64,000 nucleotides of DNA from Escherichia coli (GTDB lineage Bacteria > Pseudomonadota > Gammaproteobacteria > Enterobacterales > Enterobacteriaceae), in assembly GCF_045037415.1 (NCBI RefSeq), contig NZ_CP173438.1; one strand, given 5' to 3'. The notes below the pieces were generated by a model. That model ran no database searches. It had not been told where the DNA came from and saw nothing but the letters and a program-made list of their open reading frames with translations. The stretch's first letter is position 1, and every line of letters begins with the position of its first letter. A program made the position numbers and the translations under genes. This document shows positions 12,641 to 61,559 of this stretch, in pieces.

Positions 12641-12644
12641 AACC

Positions 12645-14840: not shown

Positions 14841-14880
14841 TATCAGGTAAAGAAGCGTTGGTCAGTGGTTGTTGCCGTTC

Positions 14881-15174: not shown

Positions 15175-15395
15175 AGCGGCAACCTTCTGCAAATGTGCAT
15201 CGAATGAAGCATAAGTGTAGTTTGCTTTTGCCGCTCTCATCATGCTGTACGAAAGGTGTTTGCGTGGTCAGTAAGAAGTGCCAGACTTTATATTCCACTT
15301 TTATTCCTTTTTATTCTTATCGATAGCGTTTCGTTTTTTAAACTGCAGCGACCTTACCGCTATAGTCAGGTAATCATTAATAAAAGGATAAAAAA

Positions 15396-16214: not shown

Positions 16215-16217
16215 TTC

Positions 16218-17141
16218 TCACTCATGCCGCGCCGGACGATTTATTTTTCTGGCGCGGCGGCGGGAATCCATTGAAATCAAAATCACCGATGACAGAATCA
16301 GCAGCGTTCCCAGCCAGTCCGGCAATGTGAAGGTGATCCCCAGCAACAGCAAAGAGAGCAGTGCGCTACTTAATGGTTCTGCACAGCTTAAAATGCTGGC
16401 TTTTGGACCACCAATTAATTGTGCTCCTTTCAGGTACAGACTAAATGTCAGGGACGTACCAATGACCACCAAATAAAAAAACGCCAGAATCAAACTGCCG
16501 TTAACGACAAAGTTTGTCCCTTGTCTGGCATAAAAGGGCAGCAGGATCAGACCGCCAATGAGCATACTCCAGCCGACGACCGGTAACGTGCCATAGCGAG
16601 CAATCAGCGTTGAGGGATAGGTGGTATAGAATGCAGCAGCAAATGCCGAGGCAATGCCCCAGAATAACGCGGCAGGAGAGATCGATAATGACGTCGGATT
16701 ACCGTGTGTCACCAATAAAAAAGTCCCGATCAGCGATGTCAAAATAGCGCAAAAAACCAGGATGCCGGGGCGGGATTTACGCACCAGTGAGAACCAGGCG
16801 ACGATAATAGTCGGTGAGAGGAATTGCAGCACCGTTGCCGTGGCTGCGTTCGATTTTTCGATGGTTAGCAAAAAAGTGAGCTGTACGGTTAGCGCGCCAA
16901 CCACGGAAAAAATCAGTAGGCTAATGGCATCTTTGTGATTGTTAATAATAGAAAAGATTTTATCACCATGAACAAATGATAGCGTCAGCAGAATCAATCC
17001 GGCGAATATCAAACGCGTCATAGTCAAAAACTGCGACGACATCTGGCTTTGCTCCATGATGTATTGCGCGCAGACCCCTGAACTTCCCCACAACACGGCG
17101 GCAATCAGAACGTTCAGCATCCCCTTTCTGGTGGAACCCAT
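16218..17141 (-). CDS. yicL: EamA/DMT-family transporter YicL (about 307 aa)
   Basis: 10-TM DMT sequence; ATG at 17141 ([11 protein letters not shown]...) verified; last recognisable core gene before the island. Confidence 0.88.
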
Positions 17142-17318
17142 TTTTCCCTCTGCATACTGTTTTGTCTTTTCATCAATATACGTTAAGGATACCACTACCG
17201 ATGACGGTGAGGGAGTAGAGTAATCAATCAGTTTTAGTGAATGGAGGAAATAATGACATATAACAATTATTCATATGGTGTTTAAAAAACCTCACTAAAA
17301 ACTCAATATGAAATTTAA

Positions 17319-17816
17319 TTATTTAATGTTCAATAACTCTATGGCTTTAGTATATTCATCAGGAATACCAATTATAAAACAAGGTGCGGTATCGGTAGGT
17401 AGATTTTCTTTGTTATCATCATCCAGAACAGAAATAGAAAACTGTCGTTCAGGTGTTGATGTTGTGGTTATTAAAATGGTTGGATTAGGAAGAGAAACAT
17501 ATGTTGTCTCATTTTTTAGTTTTATTCCTTTGATGTTTTCTTTGTTAATTTTATCAATCGTTTCAATAGAGAAAAAAGAATCATGCCCCATTCGCAGTTC
17601 AATTTTATTATCGTTTTCGAATAAATAAAGGGCATTATTGTTTTGAAACAGATTGAATATATTGTTAGCGCAAGTTTGAGTTGCTAGCCAGGATGCCGCT
17701 GGATGACTCAAATTAATATGTGTGCTAAAGACTTTGACGCGACTACTTCTGTTTTTCTCTTTACTTTCAATTAAATGCCTAGCGCTGTTGGCTGCTTTAC
17801 AAGTTCCATGCCCCAC
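17319..17816 (-). CDS. hypothetical protein (GTG start), possible pseudogene
   Basis: 165-aa ORF in AT-rich DNA; the same frame stays open upstream through a hydrophobic segment with no canonical start before a stop at 17922. Confidence 0.25.
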   Translation of the reverse strand: MGHGTCKAANSARHLIESKEKNRSSRVKVFSTHINLSHPAASWLATQTCANNIFNLFQNNNALYLFENDNKIELRMGHDSFFSIETIDKINKENIKGIKLKNETTYVSLPNPTILITTTSTPERQFSISVLDDDNKENLPTDTAPCFIIGIPDEYTKAIELLNIK

Positions 17817-18411
17817 ACGGCAAAAATAATCTCCTGAAAGGATACTTACAATCAGTATTACACCAATGACGACAGAAAAAATAGTTCCGATGAGTTTGAT
17901 GATGACAATCCTTGTGCAGTGTTATTTTCACCATGGATTATAATGTTATAGTGAAATTATTGCACCTGTAATTTTTCTTTGATTGTTTTAATCATCACAT
18001 TTACGCACTTCTTCATCTTTGTAGCAGGTAAAAGCCATATATGGATGGCTGGTGTCCGGTGCAGATAAAATGCAACTTATTCTTGATAGCTTGAAAAAAG
18101 AGAGGTTTTTTTGAGTGACGGTTGATGGTCGGTGGCAAGGAAGACGTTTTCGTACACTCGGCAAGAAAAATGAATCACTCTGTCATACTACCAGATACAT
18201 CAGCAGGGTCAGGTTGCTCAGAAATAAGCAGGATGGGGATCACTGAAGAGGCATTTTGGCGATCACAGGAGTCGAATATGAGTGTTAATGTTTTGATTTT
18301 AAATGATTAACCCGTGTTGGATAAATGAGTAACCCCCATAAGAACCCCCAAATGACTTTGCGTAAGGGAATGAGGCTAAAATACACAATCGAATCAATTA
18401 TTAGAGCTTTC

Positions 18412-23411: not shown

Positions 23412-24089
23412 CTATTTTCCGATAAATTCAACGCTGGCGCCGGTGGCATTACCGTCAGCACCAACCGTGACGGTCACTTTGTCGTACGCACGGTCTTCAG
23501 GATTGAATACTTCAAACTCAACCTTATTGCCTTTTACTTCGTAAGAGCCAAAATCAGCGGTTTCTGTTGTTTCCTCGTCATATTCCCGGGCGTATGCCTG
23601 CCGGGCAGCCTGCAGGACGGAATCTTTATTAATAGTGGTCGTCTGTTTCGGGGAAAAACCGGCAAGTGATGTGACAAATTTCGGACAGACCTTCAGCATA
23701 TCACCGCGGGTGAATTCCATTCGTACACCAAATGCCTGTAAAACGGACACATCACGCTCTGCTATGGAGTGAACGGCTTTTTTGACCATTTCCGGCGCCT
23801 GTCCGATTTCCACCTCAACAGCCCTGAATCCCGTCTGCTGATTACACATTTGTGATGTGGGGATCAGGTTACCGTTAATACTGATACGGCTGCCCAGGAG
23901 CGTCTGTACACCATTCGGGCATCCCTGCATCAGGCCAGTAATACCAATCGTGCCATTTTTCAGCATTACCAGCGCCTGACCATCTTCCGTCATGGTCTGA
24001 CACCAGCCGTTTTTGACAGCCCAGTTGCCGGCGGAGGCGGAGAATGATGCCACAGTGAACAGCAGGGGAAAAAGAGCTCTGGTATTCAT
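23412..24089 (-). CDS. secreted hypothetical protein with signal peptide (about 225 aa)
   Basis: Start placed at [20 protein letters not shown] (signal-peptide-like); ATG at 24087-24089 verified on sequence. Confidence 0.5.
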
Positions 24090-24236
24090 GACTGACCTCT
24101 GAAATGAACGTACGGTGTTATTGATAATGATGGAAGGTATGCAGTGACTGTTCAGGGAATGACGTAGCCGTATATTTAGTTTTCTGTTCAACATATTGTC
24201 TCCATACCTGTCGGGACGGCTTTGGCAGGCCGGCGA

Positions 24237-24917
24237 TCACAGGTTAAAGGTGTTGATAAGTTTATGGATGAAAGAGAAATGTGGCAGGGCGGAGATAAAA
24301 CGCTCTTCAGCGACCAGACTGTGGATGTGGCCTCTCCGTTCAAACCGTTCTGATGTCAGGCTGACTGATTTGATATCTGCCAGAGGAAAGACCTGCAGTT
24401 TTCCCTTCTGTAACGCGATCAGATACCAGCTACCGCTGTAATAAATGAGCCGGCAGGGCTCCAGTGACGGATACCATCGCTCAGTCATCAGAGAGATGTG
24501 GATACACTGTCTTATTGCCAGGATGAGTTGCGAGAAACACTCGGGGAACGTTGCAGTGATATCCGGCGCCGGTAGCCAGATAAGGCAGGGAGAGGGCTCC
24601 TGGTTGTCGGTAAGACAGGTTATCAGTCGTCCGTTCCGGAGCGGAAGTATCCGTGCGATCCCGGTATTCTGTATAAAAGAAAGCATTTCAGGGATCGCAC
24701 CTGGGCTGCTCTGTCGTCTGAGACTGTACCGGCCATTTCTGTACTCTAAGTCCAGGTGAACCAGACGCTGATGAAAATCGCGCTGTAAGGTACGTTCTGT
24801 AACACCAAATTCATCTGACAGTGTTTTTAGTGACAGAGATTCTCCGGCCATCAGTCGGCTGATAATGAGTGATAAGCGAACCGCCAGGCGATCATGCCGG
24901 GAACGATTATCAGACAT
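24237..24917 (-). CDS. WYL-domain transcriptional regulator (YfjR-like), 226 aa
   Basis: N-terminal HTH (LSLKTLSDEFGVTERTLQRDF) and C-terminal ...GSWYLIA... WYL-type segment. Confidence 0.7.
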   Translation of the reverse strand: MSDNRSRHDRLAVRLSLIISRLMAGESLSLKTLSDEFGVTERTLQRDFHQRLVHLDLEYRNGRYSLRRQSSPGAIPEMLSFIQNTGIARILPLRNGRLITCLTDNQEPSPCLIWLPAPDITATFPECFSQLILAIRQCIHISLMTERWYPSLEPCRLIYYSGSWYLIALQKGKLQVFPLADIKSVSLTSERFERRGHIHSLVAEERFISALPHFSFIHKLINTFNL

Positions 24918-25119
24918 AGATGTGCACTCCGTAAGAAAACATCTTTTATTTCATGATGTTATTATGCATCATGATGTTGAAAGGATGTGTCGCATCCGAA
25001 TAATCAGAAATAAAATGCAGCAGAAAAAATATTCCTTTAATTATCTGATTTTTAAGCAGGGTTTCATAAAAAGAAGAATGCTTGTTAATCCAGCGACACA
25101 TCCTGTCGGCGTGAGTGTG

Positions 25120-26004
25120 TCAGAACAGACGATCCCACAGTGTGACCAGCAAGTGGATAATGCGGTCCCGGGCCTTACGCAGAAGCTGTAACATCCAGGC
25201 CGGAAAGCTGAATTGGGCAACGGCAGCGTCAAAGCTTTTCCCGATGGCGTCACCAAAAGTTTGTTGTGCGTGTTTCCGGGCCTGTTCAGAGCGGTTTTCC
25301 CCCCGGATATGTGAATAAACTGCGCTGGTTGCCTGTGGTGGCAGTGCGTGGATCATCAGCGACACCAGTGCCGGAAGATTCCAGCCGACAGGTGCGGCAA
25401 CGGAGAGTACCGGAAATGATGAAGGGAACAGGGTTGCCACCCGGGCTGTTACTGTTGCCAGTGAGAGTTCCTGCTGACGGGACGGGCATTTTTCTGTGTC
25501 GTTCCATTCTTCAGCAGGAAACACGCGATCGGCATGGCTGAGAACAAACAGAAAACGCGAGGGATCTGCACCTTCATTCAGTAAAAACTGATGCATGGCA
25601 ATATCGGCAGCATACGCACGTTCATCAGCCCGCAGGATCCAGATAATCAGATCCAGTTCCGGCAGTAACTGACGATAAAGCTCCCGGTATTCCTGATCAT
25701 GCTGCGGTGTCTCACCAATGCCGGGCATATCGACCAGCGTCATTCTGCGTTCACCGAGCTGCAGGGTAAGACGATGAGCCTGGCGGGTGCAGCCGTTCAG
25801 GGGATGCGTGGCGCAGATACGGGACTGAAAAATGGCATTACACAGACTGCTTTTGCCGGTGCCGGATTTACCCATAATGCCAATTACGGGCTCGTAATGA
25901 ATAACACCGTGGAGATGTTCAAGGATTTTCTGGCGAATTTCTTCAGGAAGAAACGTCAGATATGATTTTACTTGTGCAGAGAGGGAAGAATGGCTGAATG
26001 ACAT
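25120..26004 (-). CDS. YfjP/YkfA-like GTPase (294 aa)
   Basis: Walker A GKSGTGKSS and DMPG G3-like motif; first gene of the minus-strand cassette. Confidence 0.75.
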   Translation of the reverse strand: MSFSHSSLSAQVKSYLTFLPEEIRQKILEHLHGVIHYEPVIGIMGKSGTGKSSLCNAIFQSRICATHPLNGCTRQAHRLTLQLGERRMTLVDMPGIGETPQHDQEYRELYRQLLPELDLIIWILRADERAYAADIAMHQFLLNEGADPSRFLFVLSHADRVFPAEEWNDTEKCPSRQQELSLATVTARVATLFPSSFPVLSVAAPVGWNLPALVSLMIHALPPQATSAVYSHIRGENRSEQARKHAQQTFGDAIGKSFDAAVAQFSFPAWMLQLLRKARDRIIHLLVTLWDRLF

Positions 26005-26188
26005 ACCGGTATCCTGTTGATTTCGCTGAACCGGATCACACTAATCCGGTTTATCATTCAGGTAATATGGACGTGAAAAATGATGGAATGTCTGAATTAC
26101 GGACATGATTGTTAAAGTGTAATGGAGTATGAAGTGAGTTTTTCCGAACGGGAACTAATGACATACTGCGGTTTCAGGAGATGAGAGG

Positions 26189-27319
26189 ATGACCGGACGT
26201 AAAAACAAATGTGTCAGAAAAAATTGTAACAATCAGGTTTTCTCAGTAAAAATGGCAGTGGAGAAAAGACTGTGCAGAAAACATTATGAGAGGTTTTGTG
26301 AGCTCAAAAAAAGAAGAGAGCAAAATCCTGTTCACAGATTAAATGAAGCATTGCCAAGAAAGATAAAAGGACCAAAAAGTAAGAAAAAATTAGTAAAAGA
26401 AAGAGAAATCATTAACAGCAGAAAAAAACATAAACAGGAGCAGGGACCATCGCTGACTGAACTTAATAAAAAAGTTCGTGAGATACTGAAAACTCCTGCA
26501 TGGAGAACGCTGGAAACGAGAATTCGAAGAAACGGAATCACATTTAAGTCAAAAGCAGAGTTAGATGCGCTTTCTGAACTTTATGCAATTTATTCATGGG
26601 TTTCATATTGCAAACGGGGCGATAATTATTCTGTGTGGTTTTTGAATTGTCCGGATGTAAATATAAACCTTCATGTGTGCGAATGCCGGTCTTCTGAAAG
26701 CGATTGTTATCTGCCATCTCGTTTTATTATTCTTCCAGCTCCATTAAGGCAAAAAGTAAAAAGAAAATACTCTGCTAATTCGTCTGGGGTACCAGGACAT
26801 AATGATTCAAAAAGTCTTTATAAGACAGTTTTGTCTGTTTGTGGTGGGAAAAGAGAAACCGAAATGTTCTTTTATTCATTGCCAGTAAAGACTAATCATC
26901 ATCCTTACTGGATTAAAAGTGGTGTGGTTAAAAGATTCCCTCCTGTTTTTGGTTTGTTGTTTTATGAACAGGAAAGATTAACAGGAGGTGTTTTTCGTTA
27001 TGTGTTGATAAGATTTTATAATACTTTTAAAGAGAATTTGTTTTTTGTTGAGATTGTATCGTGCTGTTTTCTTGTTGAGCTTTTTCATGATATTGATTCA
27101 TTTTTTATAAATCAACGATTAAGTAAGCTGGAAAGTTTTATAGATAAGTGGAGGGAGGGTAAAGAAATCTGGATAAAAGTATATTTACAACTGATACATA
27201 CTATATTGGGAATAACTGAAACAGAAAAACTCGTCAATCTATATAATTCATTTTTTACTGATAAAGTGGTTCTCTGGGATGAATCAGTAAAAAAAGTTAA
27301 GTGGATTTATGAGAAATAG
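26189..27319 (+). CDS. orphan hypothetical protein, Lys-rich with Cys-rich N-terminus (376 aa)
   Basis: AT-rich ORF; N-terminus CVRKNC...CRKHYERFC suggests a zinc-ribbon; no family recognised. Confidence 0.45.
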   Translation: MTGRKNKCVRKNCNNQVFSVKMAVEKRLCRKHYERFCELKKRREQNPVHRLNEALPRKIKGPKSKKKLVKEREIINSRKKHKQEQGPSLTELNKKVREILKTPAWRTLETRIRRNGITFKSKAELDALSELYAIYSWVSYCKRGDNYSVWFLNCPDVNINLHVCECRSSESDCYLPSRFIILPAPLRQKVKRKYSANSSGVPGHNDSKSLYKTVLSVCGGKRETEMFFYSLPVKTNHHPYWIKSGVVKRFPPVFGLLFYEQERLTGGVFRYVLIRFYNTFKENLFFVEIVSCCFLVELFHDIDSFFINQRLSKLESFIDKWREGKEIWIKVYLQLIHTILGITETEKLVNLYNSFFTDKVVLWDESVKKVKWIYEK

Positions 27320-28817
27320 TACCATTTAACTGAAAGCCACCATAACGTCTTTTTGACTACATTTATGATAATGCGTCTCATTTTGTTTTCGTTTTTTTGT
27401 TCAGGGAAATTTTCCGAACATCAGTGATAATGAGGGTTTTGTTGTTTTTGCTTCTGCAATGTTTGAGGACTGTTCCTGGAGACGATTCGTTGCTTGTGAG
27501 CAAGAGGTGGTCCGCTTTACTGGACAAGTTTTGCATTTGTTGAGTGGTGAAATGGAAGTAAAAAGAGCCCCTTTCTGGCAATGGTTGAAAAAGTCAGTAG
27601 CGTGTGACAGTAAAAGCTAACATAAAGTGATTATCGTATGATTATGACAATGACTTATAACTTTTATGAAAAGAACAACAGAAACTACGAAGCCATAGCA
27701 GATTCCTGAGACCATGTTTTCTGAGGTAGAGAAAATAATTCCAGAGTAAATCTGTTCTGTTTTTAGGACAGAAAACTCCATGTTGGCTGTAAAAGTGAAA
27801 AATTAACACCCAGTATGTATGGAAGTCTGAAGATGTTGAGAATGTCGGTATGATACTATATACACATATTTTACTAAGTATTTTTACTAAGCATTTCAGT
27901 AAGTGTTATACACGTATTTTCATAAACACTTGTAGAAGTGTTTTCGTTAAGCATTGCTATACACATCCAGTTTAGTAAATCTTTACGTTAACTAAATCAG
28001 TTTAATGCTGCTGTAAAACCTTTCTGCTTCAGCAATCAATCTGCTATTCGATTTTACTGATGTTACGTTTAACCTTTCCTGAGATTTCGAGTTTTGAAGT
28101 TAGCATGAGAAAAGTATCTTTACGCTAAATCAACCCGAACTTTCCTGAAGTAATCTGACGTTCTTTTCGATGTGCTTACGACGATTCTGTTAAACGACTT
28201 TCTGGATGTTTTGATAACAATCAGATTGAGGCATTAACGATTCCTGACGTTTTCTTTTCCGTGTAAGGTCATTCTTTTTGTCATGAGGTTTCTTCTTGCA
28301 TTGCGAAAGTGTGATGAACGGTTTTGATATTTTGATTCAGATGAGGTTTACGTTATCGCAGTTAATCGTTTTTATGGTGTGTTGAAAAGTAACGTTTTCA
28401 GGATAAGAAAATCGATTCTGATATTGGTAGTTTTTGTTCTTGTGGTGGGGTTATCTGTAAACAGGTTTTAAGCGCGCTATTCGGCTCTGTGATCGAGTTG
28501 TGTGGTTAAGCTGTAGGTTTGGTGTTGTTGTTGATTTGCATTGCCAGGAAGCGTTCTGGTTGTGTTTCTGGTGTTTTGTTCGAATGTTCAGTGGATCCTT
28601 TCCCTTCTGACTTTTCTCGTCGTCCATGTCGTTTTTAAATCCATTCATGCCGTTGTTTTACGTTTTACTACCGTGTGCAGGATTATCTTTTCGCTGCGGG
28701 ATGGTTTGTTCCGTTCAATCAGGAGCCATTGGTGTTGCTCAATGGTGAAATACCGTAAAGTTTTACCGCGGTGATGAATGATGTGAAGTCAATCCAAATC
28801 AACGGAGATCTCTCATC

Positions 28818-29549
28818 ATGAATCAATCAATACACAATGCTTACTGGTTATCCCGCTTTGAAAGTATTCTCAACAGTGCCCTGGCGCAACACCGTGCCGT
28901 CTCGTTAATCCGGGTGGATTTACGTTTCCCTGAGTATATGCCTGTCACCATCATGGATCCCGATCCGGATTCAGCGGTGATTTCTCGTTTTTTCGAATCC
29001 CTGAAAGCCAAAATCCAGGCTTACCAGCGGAAAAAACGGCGTGCCAACAAGCGTGTGCGCGCAACCACTCTGCGTTATTTCTGGTGTCGGGAGTTTGGCA
29101 AGGAAAAAGGCAGGAAACATTATCACGTGATATTACTGCTCAACAAAGATACTTGGTGTTCACTCGGGGATTTCAGCGAACCGTCTTCGCTGGCGACGAT
29201 GATCCAACAGGCATGGTGCAGCGCTCTGCATCTTGAGTCCTGGCAAGGCGATGGCCTGGTCCATTTTTCCAGGAGGACGCCTTTCCGTAAACCAACATCG
29301 TCTGATGCTCGCCCTTCTTCCGATGATACGCCTGTGCCTGGTGGATGTTCTGAAACCAGGAAGGTTTCAGACAAAAAGTCTGGTGAAGCCGCTGTTCTCT
29401 GGATCAAGCGTGGTGATGTGGAAGCGATGCAGAAAGCCCGGAACAGAGCCAGTTATCTCGTGAAAAATGAAACGAAGTTGCATGATGGTTCAGGTCAACG
29501 TAATTATGGTTGCAGTCGTGGGCCGGGGCGTCTACTGGATGGCAGGTGA
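28818..29549 (+). CDS. YagK/YfjJ-family (inovirus Gp2-like) protein, 243 aa
   Basis: Resembles YfjJ/YagK paralogs (LIRVDLRFPE..., KHYHVILLLN); SD ggag 10 nt upstream. Confidence 0.7.
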   Translation: MNQSIHNAYWLSRFESILNSALAQHRAVSLIRVDLRFPEYMPVTIMDPDPDSAVISRFFESLKAKIQAYQRKKRRANKRVRATTLRYFWCREFGKEKGRKHYHVILLLNKDTWCSLGDFSEPSSLATMIQQAWCSALHLESWQGDGLVHFSRRTPFRKPTSSDARPSSDDTPVPGGCSETRKVSDKKSGEAAVLWIKRGDVEAMQKARNRASYLVKNETKLHDGSGQRNYGCSRGPGRLLDGR

Positions 29550-29876
29550 ACCCTGTAAAACAGCATCCGATGCCTGAGTTTATGCCAACGCCCTTAGCTC
29601 GCTTTCTGAAAAGTCGTCCTGAAGTAATGCAATGGATTGCCATCTACTTCCGTTCGTGACACATAAGTCGAAAAACGTTTGGTTGTTCTGGTTATTTGCA
29701 TTTACTGCCATTCATAGAAATGAACAGATCGATTGGTAGGACTCAAATGTTATAGCGTCTCTCTTCTCATAGTCTGCTTTGTACCAGACGCGGAATCCCC
29801 TAATGCTGGTGTACAGGTTCTGACTCATTTCCTCCCCCACTTTCATCCCGTTATACTGTGAAAAAAGGAGGTAGGC

Positions 29877-30119
29877 GTGAAACTGAAAATGCAGGATTTG
29901 AGGCTGTTTAATATCGTGTTCGAGAGCGATCCTGGCTGGATACTGGATTTCTCTAACCGCACCTTGTCTGCTTTTTTCGATGAAGAATTGAACATTGATA
30001 TTGATGATGAACGTTATCAGAAAGAGGGGGCGTCAAAAGCCAAACGAGTTAGATGCTTGCTGAAACAGGTTGATCGTGAGAACCGCTCTGCGGGTTCTTG
30101 GTGCGCTCTGGCAGTATAA
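29877..30119 (+). pseudogene. possible N-terminal fragment of frameshifted Mrr-like gene
   Basis: 80-aa ORF ending where the downstream endonuclease-like ORF begins in another frame (overlap 30070-30119). Confidence 0.3.
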
Positions 30120-30756
30120 AACGGAATCCATGCCTGAACAGGCTGAACAAAGCCGTAATGACTATCTTGCACTGATTTCCCGCTTAGAAAACGCTGACAC
30201 CGATGAAGCCAAAGGCGTTAAGCCTGTCCAGGCATGGCATGGTGTTGACTGGCATTCACTTATCGCTGAAATGAACGAGATGAAATCTCTGCCGCCACAT
30301 CCACGTGGTTTTCGGTTTGAAGCCTGGCTTGCTGAACTGTTCAGTATCTTTAAGCTTGCTCCTCGTTCGTCTTTCCGAAATACAGGAGAACAGATTGACG
30401 GAAGTTTCCGGCTGAATGATGAATTTTACCTGATGGAGGCAAAGTGGCATCAGAAAAGAACGTCGGCTGCCGACCTCCATGTATTTGAAGGAAAACTCAG
30501 TACCAAGGCAACCTGGACACGCGGTGTTTTTATCAGTTGGATGGGGTTTACGCCTGAAGGCCTGACGGCTTTTGGTAAAGGGAAGCGGGTTATCTGTGTC
30601 AGTGGTTATGATCTTTACCACTCACTGAATCATAGGATCCCTTTACCCGACCTTCTGGATGCTAAAACCCGGCACGCGGCTGAAACGGGAGAGCCCTATG
30701 CTGAGTTCGACCGACTATATGCACTGAAAGACAAACAGTTCGGCACGCTGAAATAA
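30070..30756 (+). CDS. restriction endonuclease-like (Mrr catalytic domain) protein
   Basis: PD-(D/E)xK-like pattern GEQIDGSF...LMEAKW...GVFISWMGF typical of Mrr-type nuclease domains; possibly frameshifted relative to the 29877 ORF. Confidence 0.5.
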   Translation: MIVRTALRVLGALWQYKTESMPEQAEQSRNDYLALISRLENADTDEAKGVKPVQAWHGVDWHSLIAEMNEMKSLPPHPRGFRFEAWLAELFSIFKLAPRSSFRNTGEQIDGSFRLNDEFYLMEAKWHQKRTSAADLHVFEGKLSTKATWTRGVFISWMGFTPEGLTAFGKGKRVICVSGYDLYHSLNHRIPLPDLLDAKTRHAAETGEPYAEFDRLYALKDKQFGTLK

Positions 30757-30770
30757 CGGGTTGGGAAGCG

Positions 30771-31363
30771 ATGACCTGCTCCCCGTTGTTTCACACAAAA
30801 TCGTGTACAGGGTCGAAGTTCTGGCTCAATGTGCTGGCTGAACTGAAAAACAGCGGCCTGAACGATATCCTTATCATCTGTGCAGATGGCCTGAAAGGCT
30901 TCCCAGATGCCATCAACACAGTATATTCGGAGACCCACATCCAGTTATGCATCGTGCATATGGTGCGCAACAGTCTGCGCTTCGTGTCATGGAAGGACTA
31001 CAAAGCCGTCACTCGCGACCTGAAAGAGATTTAATCAGGCACCCACGGAAGAGGCAGGCTAGCAAGCACTAGATAAGCCGACGCTGGCAGGCTAACTGGC
31101 CGAATCTTACTACGTTCTTCGCTTATCTGACGGACATCCGCAAAGTGATCTATACGACAAATGCCATCGAGTCACTAAACAGTGTGATCCGCCATGCGAT
31201 CAAAAAGCGTAAAGTGTTCCCGACAGACGACTCGGTGAAAAAAGTGGTGTGGCTGGCAATCCAGTCTGCGTCCCAGAAATGGACAGTGCCATTGAAGGAC
31301 TGGCGTATGGCAATGAGCCGCTTTATTATCGAGTTCGGTGACCGCCTGAACGGTCACTTCTGA
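30771..31363 (+). mobile_element. IS256-family (mutator-type) transposase remnant
   Basis: Two ORF fragments (LKGFPDAINTVY...LCIVHMVRNS and ...TTNAIESLNSVIR...) match conserved IS256-family transposase segments; internally deleted. Confidence 0.65.
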
Positions 31364-53300: not shown

Positions 53301-53550
53301 TACTGCCAGCTTTGTGGGAAGAGAGGGCTTTTTCCAAACGCTCCAACAGCACCTGCTCGGCATTCACACCATGCAGTTTATTCAGTTTGTGCCAGGCATC
53401 TGGCTGGGTGGCCTTTACCCAATCCATGACATCTTGCGGGTAAAGGGCGCGTTGCTGGTCATAGTGGCAGGAATGGCCTTCTTTCCAGCCATTGTTCACC
53501 AACTGCTCGGTAATATATTGTTCAAAATGCACTTCATGATGTGCAGCCAT
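50314..53550 (-). CDS. hsdR: Type I restriction enzyme R subunit (1078 aa)
   Basis: Helicase motifs: Walker A EHSAGSGKT and DEAH-box variant IIDEAHTS; N-terminal nuclease-type region; start overlaps hsdS stop. Confidence 0.9.
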   Translation of the reverse strand: MAAHHEVHFEQYITEQLVNNGWKEGHSCHYDQQRALYPQDVMDWVKATQPDAWHKLNKLHGVNAEQVLLERLEKALSSHKAGSKTGGTINVLRKGFTIAGCGTIAMGQRKPEDARNEERIARYEHNILRVVRQLKYCPTREWEIDLVFFINGLPVATAELKTDFTQSLESAIAQYKEDRLPVDPKTKRKEPLLTFKRGAVVHFAMSDTEIAMATKLAGENTYFLPFNKGHDGSTSDLPVHINLPGEDGEYPVSYFWQEIAQKDNWLRIFYSFVYVETKEVADSNGKVERKETQIFPRYHQLAAVNKMIDDARQNGAGMQYLCEHSAGSGKTSTIAWTAHDLIRLRSTDGKAVFKSVIIVTDRTVLDSQLQDAVQQLDHQYGVIKAIDREKSSESKSKQLTEALLTGTPIIVVTIQTFPYALEAILTNQSLAQSNFAVIIDEAHTSQTGSTAKGLRAALTLNLSPQELEQMSIEDILTKVQEARAMPKNVSHFAFTATPKHSTKMLFGRPKDPNQPVSDDNLPESFHLYTQRQAIDEGFILDVLENYTHYDTAYKIGENNLDEKRVDSKQARRALARWMSLHPTTVSQKVEFIIKHFKANIAHLLEGEAKAMVVTSGRPQAVKYKLAFDKYIKKHGIEGIQALVAFSGKVPGKDLGDEDSQDPLEIDFDKEYTEYNLNPDTHGADLRHEFEKTEYRVMLVANKFQTGFNQPKLVAMYLDKKISDVEAVQTLSRLNRTYPGKDTTFVIDFVNDPQTILNAFKKYDKGAQLNEVQDVNVIYDIKDILDEQNIYNHQDLELFKQARGKSILGQSPDKKSHAHKKLLAATQRPTDVFNVKLKELVDAANHWDQQYNKAHLAGDEKAANYAESQRSDFTKQREALMRFKSDLARFVKHYSYMAQLIEFGDPELENFAAFAHLLSRRLKGVTPENIDLSALVLEKFKIKYDKEPLPEAFNQVLEPIRPNYNDPADREQAFLADIIRRLNELFGDVGDEPGRRNFANGTITRVTQNPIVVEQIEKHDKSIALKGDLPQAVKQAVVQALLKEGDIARTLLKDPQVMASYVELIFDMMKQGAEQAAVK

Positions 53551-54836
53551 TACACCGCCTCCCTGACGTCTATTTTTCCTGTGACAGCCGCGTTGATCAG
53601 CGATGTGCGGTGTTCTTTTAGAAGATCAATCGATTTATCAGTCTCTTGAATCAGTAAATCAATGTTTATCGTTGCTGCACTCAAGTAATTCGTTATTGTC
53701 TTTTGCTCATCAATTGGTGGGATAGCAATACTTGTATTAGCTAGTGAAGGAATGCTCAGGTTGTAGTTACCTACCGATGTTCTTGACTGAAATGTTAATG
53801 CTTGACGAACAGATAGTGAGTTCATCGCTTCCACTAAGAAGCTAGTATCCACTCCTTGCTTTGGTGTTAACTTTATTAGGTACGACGCAAATAAATACTG
53901 CCCATTTGAATCAAAAAGCGCGCTTTGGCCGACCAGATTAGGGTTACCGTTAGTTCTGATGACTAAAATGTCGCCTCTTGATAAAAGATAAGTTAAAGCA
54001 TCAACATCACTGATATTTGCATATTTGAGATCTTCAAAATCAACATTGGTACTCTTGATGTTTGGTATCCTGAGAACAGGATAGCCAACATCAGACTGGT
54101 TACAGTCTTGAGAGGTTCCATACATAAAGTTGGAGCAAATATGCTTTATCTTTTTGACTTCCCAATGCTTCGGCACTTGCCCAATCCACTCGATGCCAGA
54201 GTCCTGCATCTCCACATTGGGATAGAGCCCCTTTGTGACCACATGGCTGATCAGTGCTTGGCGTTTTTCTTTGAGCAGCTTAATAAAGGTCTGCTTTTCC
54301 TCGATCAGACTGTCGATGCGCTGGGTTTCGCGATCAAGGAATGTGCTAACCTGCTTCTGTAATGAAATATCAATCAGTGGAACAGGTATTTCTAAAAGAT
54401 CACCAGCTGTTAGGTTCTGACGAACTCCTCCACCCAGTTTGTTATAAATATTGGTTAGGTATAGAGCAAAAAAGTACCAGTAATAGAACCTTGGGTAGAT
54501 GCTATTTGAACTCGCTGAAACACGGATGTATGCAGGGCTCATTATTCCTCGTTCATGCACAATCCCCACTCGGCTAGTCTTTATATTTTCAAGATCTATG
54601 AGCTTAAAAACTAAGTCATCTTTTTCAAAAATCTGATAAACAGAGTAATCAGAAGATTGAAGTCCTTGTAAATCGTCTAACGAGCGGTTTATGACACCTT
54701 TCATTGTTAGTGCAAGACGATTAGATTCTTTCATTCCTTGATTGATTTCTTTGCTACTCGTAAATAAACGTTTAGCTGGTACTGAGTTCCATTTCGAGTC
54801 AGATACGAAAGCATCTACTATGTTGCCAGCATTCAT
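53550..54836 (-). CDS. hsdS: Type I R-M specificity subunit (428 aa)
   Basis: Two target-recognition-domain halves separated by conserved coiled-coil-like regions (LQKQVSTFLDRETQRIDSLIEEKQTFIKLLKEKRQALI); start overlaps hsdM stop. Confidence 0.85.
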   Translation of the reverse strand: MNAGNIVDAFVSDSKWNSVPAKRLFTSSKEINQGMKESNRLALTMKGVINRSLDDLQGLQSSDYSVYQIFEKDDLVFKLIDLENIKTSRVGIVHERGIMSPAYIRVSASSNSIYPRFYYWYFFALYLTNIYNKLGGGVRQNLTAGDLLEIPVPLIDISLQKQVSTFLDRETQRIDSLIEEKQTFIKLLKEKRQALISHVVTKGLYPNVEMQDSGIEWIGQVPKHWEVKKIKHICSNFMYGTSQDCNQSDVGYPVLRIPNIKSTNVDFEDLKYANISDVDALTYLLSRGDILVIRTNGNPNLVGQSALFDSNGQYLFASYLIKLTPKQGVDTSFLVEAMNSLSVRQALTFQSRTSVGNYNLSIPSLANTSIAIPPIDEQKTITNYLSAATINIDLLIQETDKSIDLLKEHRTSLINAAVTGKIDVREAV

Positions 54837-56815
54837 TACGCCACCTCATTCAGCAGAGCCTGAATGCGCGCTTCACATGCTTTTAGCTCACGATCAATCA
54901 CACTCAACTCGCGTGGTGGCACGTATTGGTAGAAATAGCGGTTAAAGTTAATTTCATAACCGACAATGCCCACTTCGCCGTCTTTTTCATCACGCACTGA
55001 GTGATCAATAAAGGCATCCGGTACATGTGGCAGCACCTCTTGTGCGAAGTAATCTTCAACGTCGCGGTCAAAAGGAATGCTTTCGGTGTCTTTGAGTTTA
55101 GGGTCGGCGATCACTTGGCCTTTTTCATCCAGTGCAGGCTCAAATTGCGGATCAATTTTTACAAAGTGCGCAGTTAAGGCCGTAGCCAGTGCTTTTGAGC
55201 ACTTACCAAAGTCACCCTTATTGTTATTCTTCTTAACCGCCAAACGTGCCCATTCATAAGGCTGAAGGCCAAGGTTATCGGTGAGGTATTGTACCCATGC
55301 CGCTTGTTGCTCTGGTTTGAGTTTTTTAAACGTATCTTGCTGCACAAATGCAGCAATGCCCGCAGCGGTAATATCTAGTTTGGCACGCAGTGGACGCTGA
55401 ATGGTGACTTTACGGTAGGCAAAATCAGTAGTCTGGAAGATCTTACAGTTGTCACTGGCTTCAAAGCCATCGTACGCACGGACAATATCGTCAATCTGTT
55501 CATCACTCAGGTACTTGCGCTTATCGCCTTGCGATTTACGCATGGGAGTCCAAATATCTGCCAAGTTAATCAGTTGCACCTGATTCTTGCGTCTTGGCTC
55601 TTTATGGTTAGTCAAAATCCAGATGTAGGTGCCAATGCCGGTGTTGAAGAACATATCGGTTGGCAGGGCAACAATCGCTTCGACTAAGTCTTGTTCTAGC
55701 AGCCAACGGCGGATTTCTGATGGGCCTGAGCCTGCATCGCCATTAAACAGTGGCGAGCCAGAAAGGACTATACCCACTCGGCCACCACCATTTTCTGGCG
55801 TTTCCATTTTTGATACCAAGTGCAGTAAAAACAGCATTGAACCATCAGAAATACTCGGCAGGCCTGGCCCAAAGCGTCCGGCGTATTTGAGCTGTTTGTG
55901 CTCACGTTCTACTTCTTTCTTGGCTTTTTCCCACTTAATGCCAAATGGCGGGTTGGCAAGGCCGTAGTGAAACTTGTCGGCACGTAACTGATCGTCTGAT
56001 AAGGTGTTGCCTTGCTTGATGTTATTGGCATCAAAACCGCGGATCATCATATTGGTCAGCGCCATGGCATGGGTCGCGGGGTCGAGCTCTTGACCAAAAG
56101 GCACGACTTTAGCGCTGCTGCCCATTTCTTCAATTTGGCTAATGGCATCGGAAAGGAAACCGCCCGTGCCACAGGTTGGGTCATAGATGGTGCGGATCAC
56201 ACCCTTTTCACTAAAGATATCTTCATCCGCCGCCAGCACCAGTTTGGTGGCAAGACGCACGGCATCACGCGGGGTCATAAATTCCCCGGCCTTTTCATTA
56301 ACCGAACTGGCGAACTTTAGAATCAGCTCTTCATAAGCATCTGATAATACGCGGTCAGACACTACATCAGGATGCAAGTCGAGGTTGGCAAAATGGTTTA
56401 CCATGCGATACAGCAACTTGGCTTTTTCCAGATCTTCTATGGTTTGACCAAATTTAAACTCATCAAAGATGGTACGAACGTTTTTGCTGAACTGGCTGAT
56501 GTAGTGTTCTAGGTTGTCGCCGGTGTCTGACGCGCCTAAGGTTTCTAGGCTATATTCACTGGTGTTGTAAAAGGCGAATCCCGCAATTTCTGGCAACACT
56601 AAACCAAGGTCTATGCCGGATTGTTTTTCGGCCAGATAGAACTTACGAACTTCCTCACGGGTGGGTTCTAACACGCATTCAATACGACGCAGTAGCAAAA
56701 ATGGCAGGATAATCCGCGCAAAATCGGTGTGTTTGAAATCACCCCATAAATCATCTGCCATACGCCAAATAGCACTGGAGAGTTTGGCGCTTTGTTCTTT
56801 GTCTTGTAAGTTCAT
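54836..56815 (-). CDS. hsdM: Type I R-M N6-adenine DNA methyltransferase subunit (659 aa)
   Basis: SAM-binding DPTCGTGGFL and catalytic NPPF (GLANPPFG) motifs; unusually long for HsdM. Confidence 0.9.
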   Translation of the reverse strand: MNLQDKEQSAKLSSAIWRMADDLWGDFKHTDFARIILPFLLLRRIECVLEPTREEVRKFYLAEKQSGIDLGLVLPEIAGFAFYNTSEYSLETLGASDTGDNLEHYISQFSKNVRTIFDEFKFGQTIEDLEKAKLLYRMVNHFANLDLHPDVVSDRVLSDAYEELILKFASSVNEKAGEFMTPRDAVRLATKLVLAADEDIFSEKGVIRTIYDPTCGTGGFLSDAISQIEEMGSSAKVVPFGQELDPATHAMALTNMMIRGFDANNIKQGNTLSDDQLRADKFHYGLANPPFGIKWEKAKKEVEREHKQLKYAGRFGPGLPSISDGSMLFLLHLVSKMETPENGGGRVGIVLSGSPLFNGDAGSGPSEIRRWLLEQDLVEAIVALPTDMFFNTGIGTYIWILTNHKEPRRKNQVQLINLADIWTPMRKSQGDKRKYLSDEQIDDIVRAYDGFEASDNCKIFQTTDFAYRKVTIQRPLRAKLDITAAGIAAFVQQDTFKKLKPEQQAAWVQYLTDNLGLQPYEWARLAVKKNNNKGDFGKCSKALATALTAHFVKIDPQFEPALDEKGQVIADPKLKDTESIPFDRDVEDYFAQEVLPHVPDAFIDHSVRDEKDGEVGIVGYEINFNRYFYQYVPPRELSVIDRELKACEARIQALLNEVA

Positions 56816-56882: not shown

Positions 56883-57389
56883 CTAGCTAAAGATGGCTTG
56901 CCAACGGCAAAATGCAGAACGATGTCTGTCGGTCCATTGGGTGCAAATAACATAGGTTTTTTCATCTCGCTGGGCCACTTTAGTGGTGGAGTAGCGGTTT
57001 CGCTCTTTGGCATCTTTGGCTGCACTGCGAATGTCTTCTGGCCGTGATGATTTAGCCAGTTTGAGCACGGGGAATGACAACCCAAAAATGTTGCGACAAT
57101 AGGTTAGCTGCGTGAGGTTTTCTATTTCACTCAGTGGTAGAGCATGTTCAACCAAGTCTTGGATAGCTTCGGTTATCTCTGCATTGCTGATATTGTGTTG
57201 CGTTTGTGCAACTTCCCGTGTCTCTACTTCATTTTCAAGAGCAACAGAAAACGGAAAACCTTTGGCTTGAACGGATTTAGCTAAAAAGACGTTAATAGCC
57301 TGCTCAATAGGTAAGCCCAACTCAGCAAAGATACTCGTGGCTTTTTCAAGCAGTTGAGGGTCTATATTGGTTGCCTTCATATGACTCAC
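56883..57389 (-). CDS. RelB/DinJ-like antitoxin-fold N-terminus fused to unknown C-terminal domain (168 aa)
   Basis: N-terminus LLEKATSIFAELGLPIEQAINVFLAKSVQAKGFPF resembles DinJ-type RHH domains; about 80-aa C-terminal extension unrecognised; 67 bp upstream of hsdM, same strand. Confidence 0.55.
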   Translation of the reverse strand: MSHMKATNIDPQLLEKATSIFAELGLPIEQAINVFLAKSVQAKGFPFSVALENEVETREVAQTQHNISNAEITEAIQDLVEHALPLSEIENLTQLTYCRNIFGLSFPVLKLAKSSRPEDIRSAAKDAKERNRYSTTKVAQRDEKTYVICTQWTDRHRSAFCRWQAIFS

Positions 57390-57652: not shown

Positions 57653-57928
57653 GTGGCTTCTGTTTCTATCAGCTGTCCCTCCTGTTCAGCTACTGACGGG
57701 GTGGTGCGTAACGGCAAAAGCACCGCCGGACATCAGCGCTATCTCTGCTCTCACTGCCGTAAAACATGGCAACTGCAGTTCACTTACACCGCTTCTCAAC
57801 CCGGTACGCACCAGAAAATCATTGATATGGCCATGAATGGCGTCGGATGTCGTGCCAGTGCACGCATTATGGGCGTTGGCCTCAACACGGTTTTACGTCA
57901 CTTAAAAAACTCAGGCCGCAGTCGGTAA
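57653..57928 (+). CDS. insA: IS1 InsA (91 aa)
   Basis: Zinc-finger N-terminus CPSC...CSHC and HTH; IS1 InsA sequence. Confidence 0.9.
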
Positions 57929-58083
57929 CCTCGCGCATACAGCCGGGCAGTGACGTCATCGTCTGCGCGGAAATGGACGAACAGTGGGGCTATGTCGGGG
58001 CTAAATCGCGCCAGCGCTGACTGTTTTACGCGTATGACAGGCTCCGGAAGACGGTTGTTGCGCACGTATTCGGTGAACGCACT

Positions 58084-58350
58084 ATGGCGACGCTGGGGCG
58101 TCTTATGAGCCTGCTGTCACCCTTTGACGTGGTGATATGGATGACGGATGGCTGGCCGCTGTATGAATCACGCCTGAAGGGAAAGCTGCACGTTATCAGC
58201 AAGCGTTACACTCAGCGCATTGAGCGACATAACCTGAATCTGAGACTACATCTGGCAAGGCTGGGCAGGAAGTCACTGTCGTTCTCAAAATCGGTGGAGC
58301 TGCATGACAAGGTCATCGGGCATTATCTGAACATAAAACACTATCAGTAA
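58084..58350 (+). pseudogene. insB: IS1 insB, C-terminal part downstream of a premature stop
   Basis: Only the C-terminal 88 codons form an ORF; upstream insB frame contains TGA where I recall TGG in canonical IS1. Confidence 0.7.
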
Positions 58351-58366: not shown

Positions 58367-58594
58367 CTATTTTAATGGATTGTTAATCTTTGCATATTCA
58401 AACGGGCTGATACATTGTTCTCTGTTCGCATCCAGAAAATCTGCCCACCACTGTAGCATAAGTCGACGTTCTTCCAGATGTTCGGCTTTATGGATATACG
58501 CAGCACGTACACCATTACGCTCCTGATGGCTCATCTGACGTTCAGCCGCTTTATCTCGTGCTGTTCTGGTCTCAATACTTCCATGCCGTTGCAA
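58367..58594 (-). pseudogene. tyrosine integrase C-terminal fragment (P4-like), truncated by IS1
   Basis: 75-aa ORF ...YIHKAEHLEERRLMLQWWADFLDA... parallels the C-terminus of the integrase at 63036 (YNHAQYLDGRREMMQWYADYIDS); abuts the IS1 right end. Confidence 0.7.
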
Positions 58595-58762
58595 TTACCT
58601 CTTAAACCATTCCTTACCATTTTCATGTCTTCGATAAGAAATCTTCATCATGCATGATCGATTTTGTCGATCGATTCGATCGAATTTTCTCTTTTTACCC
58701 TGTCTTTTGCATGGTTTTAAAATAAGCAACCTTCTTTATCGTGTGGGTAAGAACCAACGGAG

Positions 58763-59518
58763 ATGATTGAAATGAAAAAGGTTATTGCTGTTTCAGCGCT
58801 TGCTATGGCGGGCGTATTTTCAGCCCAGGCTCTGGCTGATGAGAACAAAACTGGCTTTTATGTGACTGGTAAAGCCGGTGCTTCAGTTGTGGCTCAGACT
58901 GACCAGCGCTTCCGTCAGGACTTGGGGGAGGATGTTTATAAGTATAAGGGCGGCGATAAGAACGATACTGTATTTGGTGAAGGCCTTGCGGTGGGCTATG
59001 ATTTTTATCAACATTACAATGTTCCTGTGCGCACGGAAGTGGAATTCTATGGCCGCGGAGCTGCGGACTCCCATTATACACTGGATACATGGCATTCTCC
59101 GATGGGGAATGGTGGTCGGGAAGACACACAGAACAGGCTCAGTGTGAATACCCTGATGGTGAACACGTATTATGATTTCAGAAACAGCAGTGCATTCACT
59201 CCATGGGTATCTGTTGGCCTAGGTTATGCACGAGTACATCATAAGGCGACATATACTGATACCTCCAGGAATGAATCTGGCGAGATAAGTGATATTTCTG
59301 AGTTACATTACTCGGGATATGATAACAATTTCGCATGGAGCATTGGGGCCGGTGTTCGCTATGACGTAACCCCGGATATCGCTCTTGACCTCAGCTATCG
59401 CTATCTGGATGCTGGTAAATCCTCCCTGTCTTACAAGGATGCAGAAGAGGATAAATATAAATCAGAAGTTGACGTTAAAAGTCACGACATCATGTTTGGT
59501 GTGACTTATAACTTCTGA
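58763..59518 (+). CDS. outer-membrane beta-barrel protein with signal peptide (about 248-251 aa)
   Basis: Signal peptide KKVIAVSALAMAGVFSAQALA, alternating-hydrophobic strands and C-terminal ...GVTYNF typical of OM beta-barrels; ATG 58772 with SD ggag is an alternative start. Confidence 0.7.
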   Translation: MIEMKKVIAVSALAMAGVFSAQALADENKTGFYVTGKAGASVVAQTDQRFRQDLGEDVYKYKGGDKNDTVFGEGLAVGYDFYQHYNVPVRTEVEFYGRGAADSHYTLDTWHSPMGNGGREDTQNRLSVNTLMVNTYYDFRNSSAFTPWVSVGLGYARVHHKATYTDTSRNESGEISDISELHYSGYDNNFAWSIGAGVRYDVTPDIALDLSYRYLDAGKSSLSYKDAEEDKYKSEVDVKSHDIMFGVTYNF

Positions 59519-59692
59519 CGACACTGCTCCTGAGCGATAATTACACATATTCAGTAATTAAGATATTTATATATCTTCTGCAACTAAACAGAAATACCCT
59601 GCAGTAATATATCGCAGGGTCATTTGTTTCACAGGAGATTTCTGGTTTTTATTATGTTATTCTCTTTATAATAATATTACCGATATATTCCG

Positions 59693-61195
59693 ATGAATAT
59701 CAGAAAACTGTTTTGTCCGGGCAACACACCCCAGATTTTATTGTTTTTATTCTTTTTTATTGTTTCTGTAATAACCACAATTGCATGCGGATACACTGAG
59801 AAGAATGCCACAGGAAATGTGCTGCTTCTGTTTCTCCTTCTTCTCCTTGCACACAGAAATACCCTCACATCCATTACAGCGCTGTTATTTCTGTTCTGTT
59901 GTGCACTGTATGCGCCTGCCGGTATGACGTACGGTAAAATCAACAACAGTTTTATTGTCGCGTTGTTGCAGACCACAACTGATGAGGCAGCGGAGTTTAC
60001 CGGGATGATTCCTGTTTATCATTTTCTGGTCAGTGCCGCGATTCTGGTATTCATGGTGATTTTCTGGCGGACACATCACCGTGGTCACCGTAACTGGCTG
60101 GCACTGCTGCTGTTCGTATTATGCTCAGTAAACAGCTGGCCGTTGCGGATGGTTAAAGGAACTGTTGTGGGGACAACTGACACATTGCGTGAAATGCAGC
60201 ATTATAAACAACTGAGTCAGCACGGGGCTGACAACTGGAAAATCCTGCCGGGAACACCGTTATATGACACGATTGTGATTGTCACTGGTGAGAGTGTGCG
60301 CAGGGATTATATGTCGGTATATGGCTATCCCGTGCCAACCACGCCGTGGCTGAATACAGCTCCCGGTTTATTTATTGACGGCTATACATCGGCAGCAGCC
60401 AGTACCGTACCTTCCCTGAGCCGGACACTGATTTATGACTATGAGCAGAACCCTGATTCCGGCAACAACGTGGTGGCGCTGGCAGCAAAAGCAGGATACA
60501 GCACATGGTGGATATCCAATCAGGGAAAACTGGGAGAGCATGACACACGCATCTCTGTTATTGCTTCTGATGCGGAGCATACCGTTTTCCTCAAGAAAGG
60601 CAGCTTCGCTTCCCGTAAAACGGATGACATGTTGTTGTTACAGGAAACAGAACGTGCGCTGGCGGATAAATCCTCTCCGAAGGTGATTTTCCTGCACATG
60701 ATTGGCTCTCATCCGAATCCGTGTGACCGACTTAACTCCTGGCCGAATTATTACCTGGAGCAGTATCCCCGAAAGATTGCCTGTTACCTCGCCAGCATCA
60801 GTAAACTGGATAACTTTCTCGGTCAGCTTGATGGTATCCTTCGCCGGCATTCCCGTCATTTCGTCATGCTTTACTTTTCTGACCATGGGCTGTCGGTCAG
60901 CGACAGTGCTAATCCTGTTCATCATGATGGTCATGTGCAGGGAGGCTACAGCGTTCCCCTGATTATTACCGCCAGTGACATCACGTCTCATCAGTCCGTC
61001 AGCAGAAAAATCAGTGCCCGTCATTTCGCAGGTATTTTTCAGTGGCTGACCGGCATTCGTACTGAAAATATACCGCCATTCAATCCGCTGACAGACGAAG
61101 ATAATGAACTCATTATGGTTTTTAACGGAGACAAGAATGTACCGACAGACAGTCTTGAGTCACAACCTCTGATTCTTCCGGGCAAGGGAAAATAA
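59693..61195 (+). CDS. sulfatase-family phosphoethanolamine transferase candidate (500 aa)
   Basis: N-terminal multi-TM region followed by a periplasmic sulfatase-like domain (IVIVTGESVRRDY, HMIGSHPNPCDRL); EptA/OpgE-like architecture. Confidence 0.7.
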   Translation: MNIRKLFCPGNTPQILLFLFFFIVSVITTIACGYTEKNATGNVLLLFLLLLLAHRNTLTSITALLFLFCCALYAPAGMTYGKINNSFIVALLQTTTDEAAEFTGMIPVYHFLVSAAILVFMVIFWRTHHRGHRNWLALLLFVLCSVNSWPLRMVKGTVVGTTDTLREMQHYKQLSQHGADNWKILPGTPLYDTIVIVTGESVRRDYMSVYGYPVPTTPWLNTAPGLFIDGYTSAAASTVPSLSRTLIYDYEQNPDSGNNVVALAAKAGYSTWWISNQGKLGEHDTRISVIASDAEHTVFLKKGSFASRKTDDMLLLQETERALADKSSPKVIFLHMIGSHPNPCDRLNSWPNYYLEQYPRKIACYLASISKLDNFLGQLDGILRRHSRHFVMLYFSDHGLSVSDSANPVHHDGHVQGGYSVPLIITASDITSHQSVSRKISARHFAGIFQWLTGIRTENIPPFNPLTDEDNELIMVFNGDKNVPTDSLESQPLILPGKGK

Positions 61196-61559
61196 GAGTA
61201 ATGTTCATCACCAGGTTATGTACGATGAGTTTTCCACTGTTTATAGCAATTATCTTGCTAATAACCAGACAGGAGTAACCAGACCAGACCAACCGAAAAC
61301 ACCGGGGAGGTGATTACCCGCTGGCAGAGGAAATCCGGTTTTTTTTGATGTCAGCCATAACGTGTTTGACAATAAAGCATTATGAAAGGGTGTTAATGAG
61401 TCCATGGGATAATTCATAAAAATAATTTACTGTGTTGTCCTTTTCAAAAGAAATATTCAGAAGATAACCCCTGGCTGACAACCAGGGAAAGGGGACATTA
61501 ACAGTGTTATTATTGGTGGATAAATTATTACTTGTGTGCAGGATACACTAATGCGATAT

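Follow-up and report, generated by a model that had tools for sequence, protein, structure and literature searches.

A selC island of Escherichia coli carries an allele of tia next to an intact YjgX-type phosphoethanolamine transferase gene

We analyzed a 64,000-nucleotide (nt) stretch of an Escherichia coli genome (RefSeq assembly GCF_045037415.1, contig NZ_CP173438.1; hereafter the window), centered on two adjacent plus-strand open reading frames (ORFs), 58763..59518 and 59693..61195. The window holds an E. coli selC genomic island, and the two genes are its integrase-proximal cargo cassette. The first gene is a tia allele, tia being known from E. coli as a virulence gene, and the second encodes an intact phosphoethanolamine (PEtN) transferase of the YjgX type. 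The likely explanation for the locus as a whole is that these are two envelope genes which function separately and travel together as a cassette of the selC island. Among 5,426 complete E. coli genomes searched by megablast with positions 58600-61300, at least 11 RefSeq genomes are 100% identical along the whole query; in these, the genes bear the names “tia: invasion outer membrane protein Tia” and “phosphoethanolamine transferase”. Thus, the tia locus with its usual, uncharacterized transferase neighbor is already annotated and described, and nothing points to a new kind of system. A first-pass annotation of the sequence had correctly noticed two adjacent plus-strand genes, the first of which we start slightly later, but missed that this tia locus on the selC island had already been published.

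The product of the first gene matches the Tia prototype from enterotoxigenic E. coli (ETEC) H10407 at 231 of 248 residues (93%) in an ungapped alignment, with 17 substitutions. Its start is most likely at 58772 rather than at 58763, since the GGAG at 58759-58762 sits 9 nt before the ATG at 58772 but directly abuts the ATG at 58763, and since both the NCBI Prokaryotic Genome Annotation Pipeline (PGAP) and the 248-residue H10407 Tia use 58772. A signal peptide with an AQALA/DE cleavage motif can be read from the N-terminus, MKKVIAVSALAMAGVFSAQALA/DE, and the C-terminal residue is Phe. The Pfam domain OMP_b-brl was matched at 6.8e-22, and the closest solved structures by sequence are Opa60 and NspA. 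An AlphaFold model built with 39 homologs (mean predicted local distance difference test score, pLDDT, of 89) contains eight long strands after the low-confidence signal peptide, and Foldseek matched this model to NspA, OmpA, OmpX, Ail and OmpW. The secreted β-barrel proposed in the first-pass annotation is thus upheld at each of these levels. The tia gene of H10407 was found in its selC island, beside an equivalent integrase relic. Members of the Hra family (Hra1, Hra2, Tia, Hek and Hes) have been associated with adhesion, invasion, hemagglutination and autoaggregation (PMC5539235), and heparan sulfate proteoglycan is bound by Tia and Hek (PMC2553418). From the 93%-identical prototype we infer that Tia of the window may bind heparan sulfate proteoglycan as well.

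The product of the second gene contains the Pfam domains Sulfatase (PF00884, 9.1e-37) and EptA_B_N (4.3e-5), and a hydropathy profile revealed five hydrophobic segments within residues 1-155, where the structural model has helices as well. Its AlphaFold model (pLDDT 90) was aligned by Foldseek over the full length to MCR-1 (9nww) and NmEptA (5fgn), in agreement with the earlier description of a membrane-anchored enzyme of the sulfatase family. The catalytic domain of EcEptC is the best match among solved structures by sequence (1e-17), and the model superimposes on it (6a82) with a TM-score of 0.73, normalized to the target. An alignment of 52 homologs with 21-92% identity shows no variation at E200, T238, H335, H340, D397 or H398, and H411 is kept in at least 90% of the sequences; we assign these seven as the catalytic residues. 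HMMER alignments placed T238 on the EcEptC nucleophile and on Thr285 of MCR-1, and the metal ligands E200, H340 and D397/H398 on MCR-1 E246, H395 and D465/H466. The catalytic threonine and the set of Zn ligands are complete; the loss of these residues, named in the first-pass annotation as the observation that would speak against a transferase, is not seen. In K-12, the yjgX pseudogene at leuX matches 78% of the window gene at 91.7% nucleotide identity, and truncated or frameshifted copies of this kind occur in K-12 and in many further strains. Of the 5,426 complete genomes, 1447, or roughly a quarter, have a copy that spans 80% or more of the gene. Our literature search turned up no work on the function of an intact enzyme of the YjgX type; the papers found on yjgX deal only with the K-12 pseudogene, which serves in them as a negative control or marks a site of integration.

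Comparison with the K-12 paralogs by BLASTP gave 232 bits for OpgE (31% identity over 483 residues), 105 for YhbX, 92 for EptC, 57 for EptB and 45 for EptA. OpgE is also the reciprocal nearest characterized paralog, with 232 and 225 bits in the two directions versus at most 123 for YhbX-type, EptC, EptB and EptA sequences. Within the label “EptA/OpgE type” of the first-pass annotation, OpgE is thus the closer of the two, and EptA, at 45 bits and below the family cut-offs, the more distant. The hidden Markov model search that it had proposed returned the OMP_b-brl, Sulfatase and EptA_B_N domains, and none of the curated NCBIfam cut-offs was reached for CptA (108.3 versus 404), EptB (52.8 versus 493), EptA (57.9 versus 561 and 37.7 versus 660) or MCR (19-33 versus 1075-1250). 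The NCBIfam library contains no OpgE model. An EptC-like identity, suggested by CptA as the top NCBIfam match, was rejected, as the nearest BLASTP paralog is OpgE; a genuine OpgE also matches CptA best, at 85 bits, so that this top match is an effect of the make-up of the library. OpgE is known to transfer PEtN to osmoregulated periplasmic glucans and not to lipid A (PMC3818809).

These comparisons bear directly on the possibility that lipid A or the lipopolysaccharide (LPS) core is the acceptor of the transferase, as it is for EptA, EptB, EptC or MCR, and that the PEtN placed there lowers the surface charge and so alters resistance to cationic peptides and polymyxin or the adsorption of phages. 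The superfamily and the fold are shared and the catalytic set is intact, EcEptC provides the best solved structure, and some homologs carry the automatic name “lipid A PEtN transferase”. For the related adhesin PagN, masking by LPS has moreover been reported (PMC2553418), so that changes in LPS could matter for this family of outer-membrane proteins (OMPs). We nevertheless regard a role in LPS modification as unlikely: every curated cut-off is missed by far, the BLASTP scores for EptA, EptB and EptC are well below that for OpgE, and unnoticed colistin resistance would seem hard to reconcile with a near-full-length gene in 1447 of 5426 genomes. In particular, judged by sequence, an EptA- or MCR-type lipid A role is without specific support. 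The first-pass proposal that the pair forms a module for LPS modification, phage adsorption or polymyxin resistance is accordingly unsupported, given that the OMP is the adhesin/invasin Tia and that the enzyme scores 20-110 bits against cut-offs of 400-1250 and has a glucan-directed protein as its nearest characterized relative.

To describe the pairing across genomes, we opened seven E. coli loci, each with a near-full-length transferase, located at selC, pheV and pheU and in some cases beside pap. An Hra-family OMP gene lies 151-181 nt 5′ of the transferase on the same strand in all seven, and over all sampled islands with a YjgX-clade gene the gap is 151-212 nt. Across the E. coli loci, identity to the window is 62-68% for the OMP (pap-linked and other island alleles) and 92-96% for the transferase, a pattern that fits a fast-diversifying surface protein next to a conserved enzyme. 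The same pattern points to purifying selection on the transferase, and it argues, together with the full-length 500-residue ORF, the presence of all catalytic residues and the model pLDDT of 90, against the view that the gene, like yjgX of K-12, is a passenger in decay that has lost its function. The damaged copies in K-12 and many other strains and the lack of a clear ribosome-binding site before the transferase ATG would be expected of such a passenger; for the copy in the window we consider decay barely credible.

The order of OMP and then transferase also occurs in a Salmonella island, at 47% (OMP) and 58% (transferase) identity, and in two metagenome contigs, the range over these and Salmonella being 47% for the OMP and 57-58% for the transferase. 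One variant of the Salmonella island contains a split sulfatase-domain gene about 2 kb 3′ of the Tia-like OMP gene (7873-9357 of its stretch), which is absent from sister contigs; this suggests that decay and loss of the transferase have taken place there too. Beyond these islands the two genes part. In Providencia, Tia homologs belong to the core genome, where metJ and rpmE flank them and no transferase is close by, and transferase homologs at 52% identity or less, in E. lignolyticus, in Erwinia, on an IncI-like plasmid and on other contigs, have no OMP neighbor. About 1955 sequences form a sister clade, 48-52% identical to the transferase, whose genes lie between a DUF2569 gene and hok/exclusion genes in an apparent IncI-type plasmid backbone, again with no OMP partner.

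Comparison with ETEC H10407 showed that homology to the window ends exactly at the tia stop codon and restarts 35 nt past the transferase stop. The H10407 locus (24080-31279 of its stretch) places leoCBA and a YhbX-like transferase between tia and a gene for a tetratricopeptide-repeat (TPR) protein. This transferase (557 residues) shows 65% identity to K-12 YhbX but only 27% to the enzyme of the window, and H10407 has no YjgX-type neighbor at tia. The intact YhbX-like gene of H10407 occupies the position of a decayed YhbX-like relic in the window (61200-61406). We had considered a non-orthologous replacement of the transferase in H10407, which is weakened by this 3′ relic. The relic instead indicates that the ancestor of these islands probably carried both YjgX- and YhbX-type paralogs, followed by deletion and rearrangement.

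The intergenic region between tia and the transferase contains a conserved hairpin (CCCTGC-11 nt-GCAGGG, 59597-59619) followed by the T-rich tail TCATTTGTTT. In the alignment of the intergenic regions of the islands, which leaves out the row of strain 33E, the pap-linked alleles have a stem of 8 bp and a better T tract. A terminator scan did not call the hairpin at 59597-59619, the loop of which is longer than 8 nt. The best promoter-like site of the region lies just beyond, 38 nt 5′ of the transferase ATG, and matches the consensus at 10 of 12 positions. The hairpin and this site are consistent with independence of the two genes.

We then weighed whether the two products could be biochemical partners, the transferase placing PEtN on Tia or on the envelope around it and so tuning display, adhesion or antigenicity. 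Proteins are known to receive O-linked PEtN elsewhere, namely pilin from Neisseria PptA and FlgG from Campylobacter EptC. Such a partnership would account for the same-strand adjacency at 151-212 nt in every sampled island with a YjgX-clade gene, kept down to 47% and 57-58% identity in varied island contexts, and for the YhbX-like PEtN transferase retained in the cassette of H10407, which is missing the YjgX-type gene. The core gene opgE, moreover, adjoins ompX, which encodes another eight-stranded barrel; in the K-12 core genome the two are directly adjacent and convergent (3451-5598 of its stretch). However, leoCBA parts tia from any transferase in H10407, the presence there of a YhbX-like enzyme is better explained by deletion and rearrangement of the two-paralog ancestor than by replacement, and the hairpin and separate promoter-like site lie between the genes in the window. 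The Providencia homologs without a transferase and the PEtN transferase homologs without an OMP neighbor also count against it. HB101 and DH5α derive from K-12, in which yjgX is a pseudogene. When expressed alone in E. coli HB101 or DH5α, the family member Hes and the more distant relative PagN nevertheless produce phenotypes (PMC5539235, PMC2553418). Partnership in the window therefore seems quite improbable to us, and we give slightly less credence still to the broader idea that pairing of a small eight-stranded barrel with an OpgE-clade PEtN transferase (Tia/Hek with YjgX, ompX with opgE, and the YhbX-like enzyme in H10407) reflects a true functional partnership. If it did, PEtN on the adhesin or on its envelope surroundings might tune display, host binding and immune recognition.

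Taken together, we favor the explanation in which Tia and the transferase act separately. Tia would be exported by the Sec pathway and inserted by the β-barrel assembly machinery to form an eight-stranded outer-membrane barrel, whose long surface loops, by homology with prototype Tia and Hek, may attach to heparan sulfate proteoglycans of the host and promote adherence and invasion. The transferase would be a functional version of K-12 yjgX, anchored in the inner membrane by five helices. As expected from its enzyme family, it would load PEtN from phosphatidylethanolamine on T238 and pass it to an acceptor at the periplasmic face. Because OpgE is the reciprocal nearest characterized paralog, this acceptor would most likely be a glucan or other glycan, such as the osmoregulated periplasmic glucans, and less likely lipid A. 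The linkage of the pair is probably a matter of common descent, within an old cassette whose adhesin diversifies quickly and whose enzyme is conserved; an obligatory biochemical partnership is less likely than such linkage.

Several points weigh against this explanation. Host binding by Tia is carried over from the prototype, from which the allele differs at 17 residues. The 31% identity to OpgE is too low to transfer substrate specificity, and some databases call homologs “lipid A phosphoethanolamine transferase”, although these names are automatic. There is no obvious Shine-Dalgarno sequence before the ATG at 59693, which makes the expression level uncertain. Finally, the lasting adjacency at 47% and 58% divergence could instead mean functional coupling.

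The features that frame the island are listed in Table 1. The distal boundary is marked by the 16-bp repeat at 18261-18276, and the integrase runs to the other end of the window, with selC itself about 0.5 kb beyond, according to the annotation of strain 219; the first-pass view that the pair is island-borne is confirmed by this arrangement. Mean G+C content is 46.5% in the island and 49.7% in the flanking core. Strain 219, which is 100% identical over 58600-61300, shows the gene order HsdRSM, RelB-like gene, IS1, integrase relic, tia, PEtN transferase, TPR protein, integrase, tRNA-Sec, and the core genes yicJ and yicI. The integrase relic just 5′ of the OMP gene is conserved in many unrelated islands, among them those of H10407, Ec-050, 33E and SB0258h1. 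We found no tRNA-derived repeat beside the relic. A tandem island with a second att site at the relic was rejected, as the selC 3′ end is repeated only at 18261-18276 and not in the interval from the relic to tia.

Table 1 Features of the selC island and its cassette, in window coordinates.
Feature	Position	Strand	Remarks
Core genes ilvBN, uhp, ade, setC	1-17717		Flank of the island
16-bp exact direct repeat of the selC (tRNA-Sec) 3′ end	18261..18276	.	Distal boundary of the ~46-kb island
P4-type integrase C-terminus relic	58367..58549	-	NCBIfam integrase domain 4.8e-8; pseudogene per PGAP
Promoter-like site 5′ of tia, TTTACC-18-TAAAAT	58694..58723	+	9/12; consensus match only
tia allele	58772..59518	+	248 residues; eight-stranded outer-membrane β-barrel adhesin/invasin of the Hra/Tia/Hek family
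Conserved hairpin and T-rich tail	59597..59629	+	Candidate weak terminator after tia
Promoter-like site 5′ of the transferase, TTCACA-16-TATTAT	59628..59655	+	Region conserved in other islands
YjgX-type (OpgE-like) phosphoethanolamine transferase	59693..61195	+	500 residues, intact; five N-terminal transmembrane helices and a periplasmic sulfatase-fold domain
Decayed YhbX-like PEtN transferase relic	61200..61406	+	Last ~69 codons, two in-frame stops, 46% identity
TPR-repeat protein	61560..62603	-	347 residues by PGAP; often the third gene of the cassette next to the integrase
P4-type tyrosine integrase of the selC island	63036..64000	-	Continues beyond the window end; ORF list and PGAP

Inspection of the neighboring genes gave some further observations. 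In selC, pheV and pheU islands alike, the conserved TPR gene separates the transferase gene from that of the integrase, and its product gave weak matches only, to SctY-like chaperone and PrsT models. A full type I restriction-modification (R-M) system (HsdR, HsdS and HsdM; 50314-56815, minus strand) lies 5′ of the pair. Adjoining it, 56883-57380 (minus strand) encodes a protein of 165-168 residues with an N-terminal RelB/DinJ antitoxin domain and no obvious toxin partner. An IS1 copy (57653-58350, plus strand), with an internal stop according to PGAP, stands between the R-M module and the integrase relic and tia. The segment from about 18100 to 47000 has a CP4-57-like backbone with a YeeU/CbtA toxin-antitoxin pair, an antirestriction protein, DUF932 and Gp2-family proteins and an H-NS paralog; it is broken up by insertion sequences (two ISEc45 copies, IS66, IS21 and IS256) and also holds RhuM and MobI(A/C)-like genes. 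A scan with Rfam found no match anywhere in the 64-kb window.

The association of tia with virulence is established, and by carrying it this selC island can be recognized as a pathogenicity island of the tia type, one that lacks leoCBA. The YjgX-type transferase adjoins adhesin genes (tia, hek/hra and pap), and identifying its acceptor would fill a minor gap in what is known of the E. coli envelope. The two-gene unit or its transferase has been described before. A “sulfatase ORF-tia” unit is the core of SE-PAI (JQ994271) and of PAI-0 of E. coli IBS28 (PMC7371111). GIselC17584/1 contains a 1503-bp PEtN transferase coding sequence and a neighboring type I R-M system, and YjgX or YhbX transferases were present at every integration site analyzed in that study (PMC6174562). 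In a genome-wide association study of bloodstream infection, an island-borne “putative opgE” near pap and integrases was associated with a urinary portal of entry (PMC8946752).

Set against these known systems, the window locus is closest to that of ETEC H10407, with which it shares 93% identity of Tia over 248 residues, the selC island, the upstream integrase relic, the downstream TPR gene and integrase, and the class of eight-stranded barrel. It differs in the 17 substitutions and in what follows tia, which in H10407 is leoCBA and an intact YhbX-like transferase and in the window is directly the YjgX-type transferase, with only a relic of the YhbX-like gene. SE-PAI, PAI-0 and GIselC17584/1 have the same two-gene unit by a tRNA-associated integrase, and GIselC17584/1 shares the type I R-M system as well. 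In SE-PAI, however, the pair is surrounded by shiA and subAB2 at tRNA-Phe, and the window island has neither of these additions. OpgE (YbiP) of K-12 resembles the transferase in sequence (31% identity over 483 residues), in architecture and in the position of its gene beside the eight-stranded OMP gene ompX, but it is a core gene product and 27 residues longer, and ompX and opgE are convergent whereas tia and the transferase gene are co-directional. EptA/MCR, EptB and EptC (CptA) share the fold, the membrane topology and the catalytic residues, at 22-25% identity and 45-92 bits, well under the curated family cut-offs. The yjgX gene of the K-12 KpLE2 element at leuX also lies beside a tRNA-associated integrase and is 91.7% identical over the 78% that can be compared, but it has lost its 5′ end, carries a frameshift and an internal stop, and no longer has the upstream OMP gene, whereas the copy in the window is intact.

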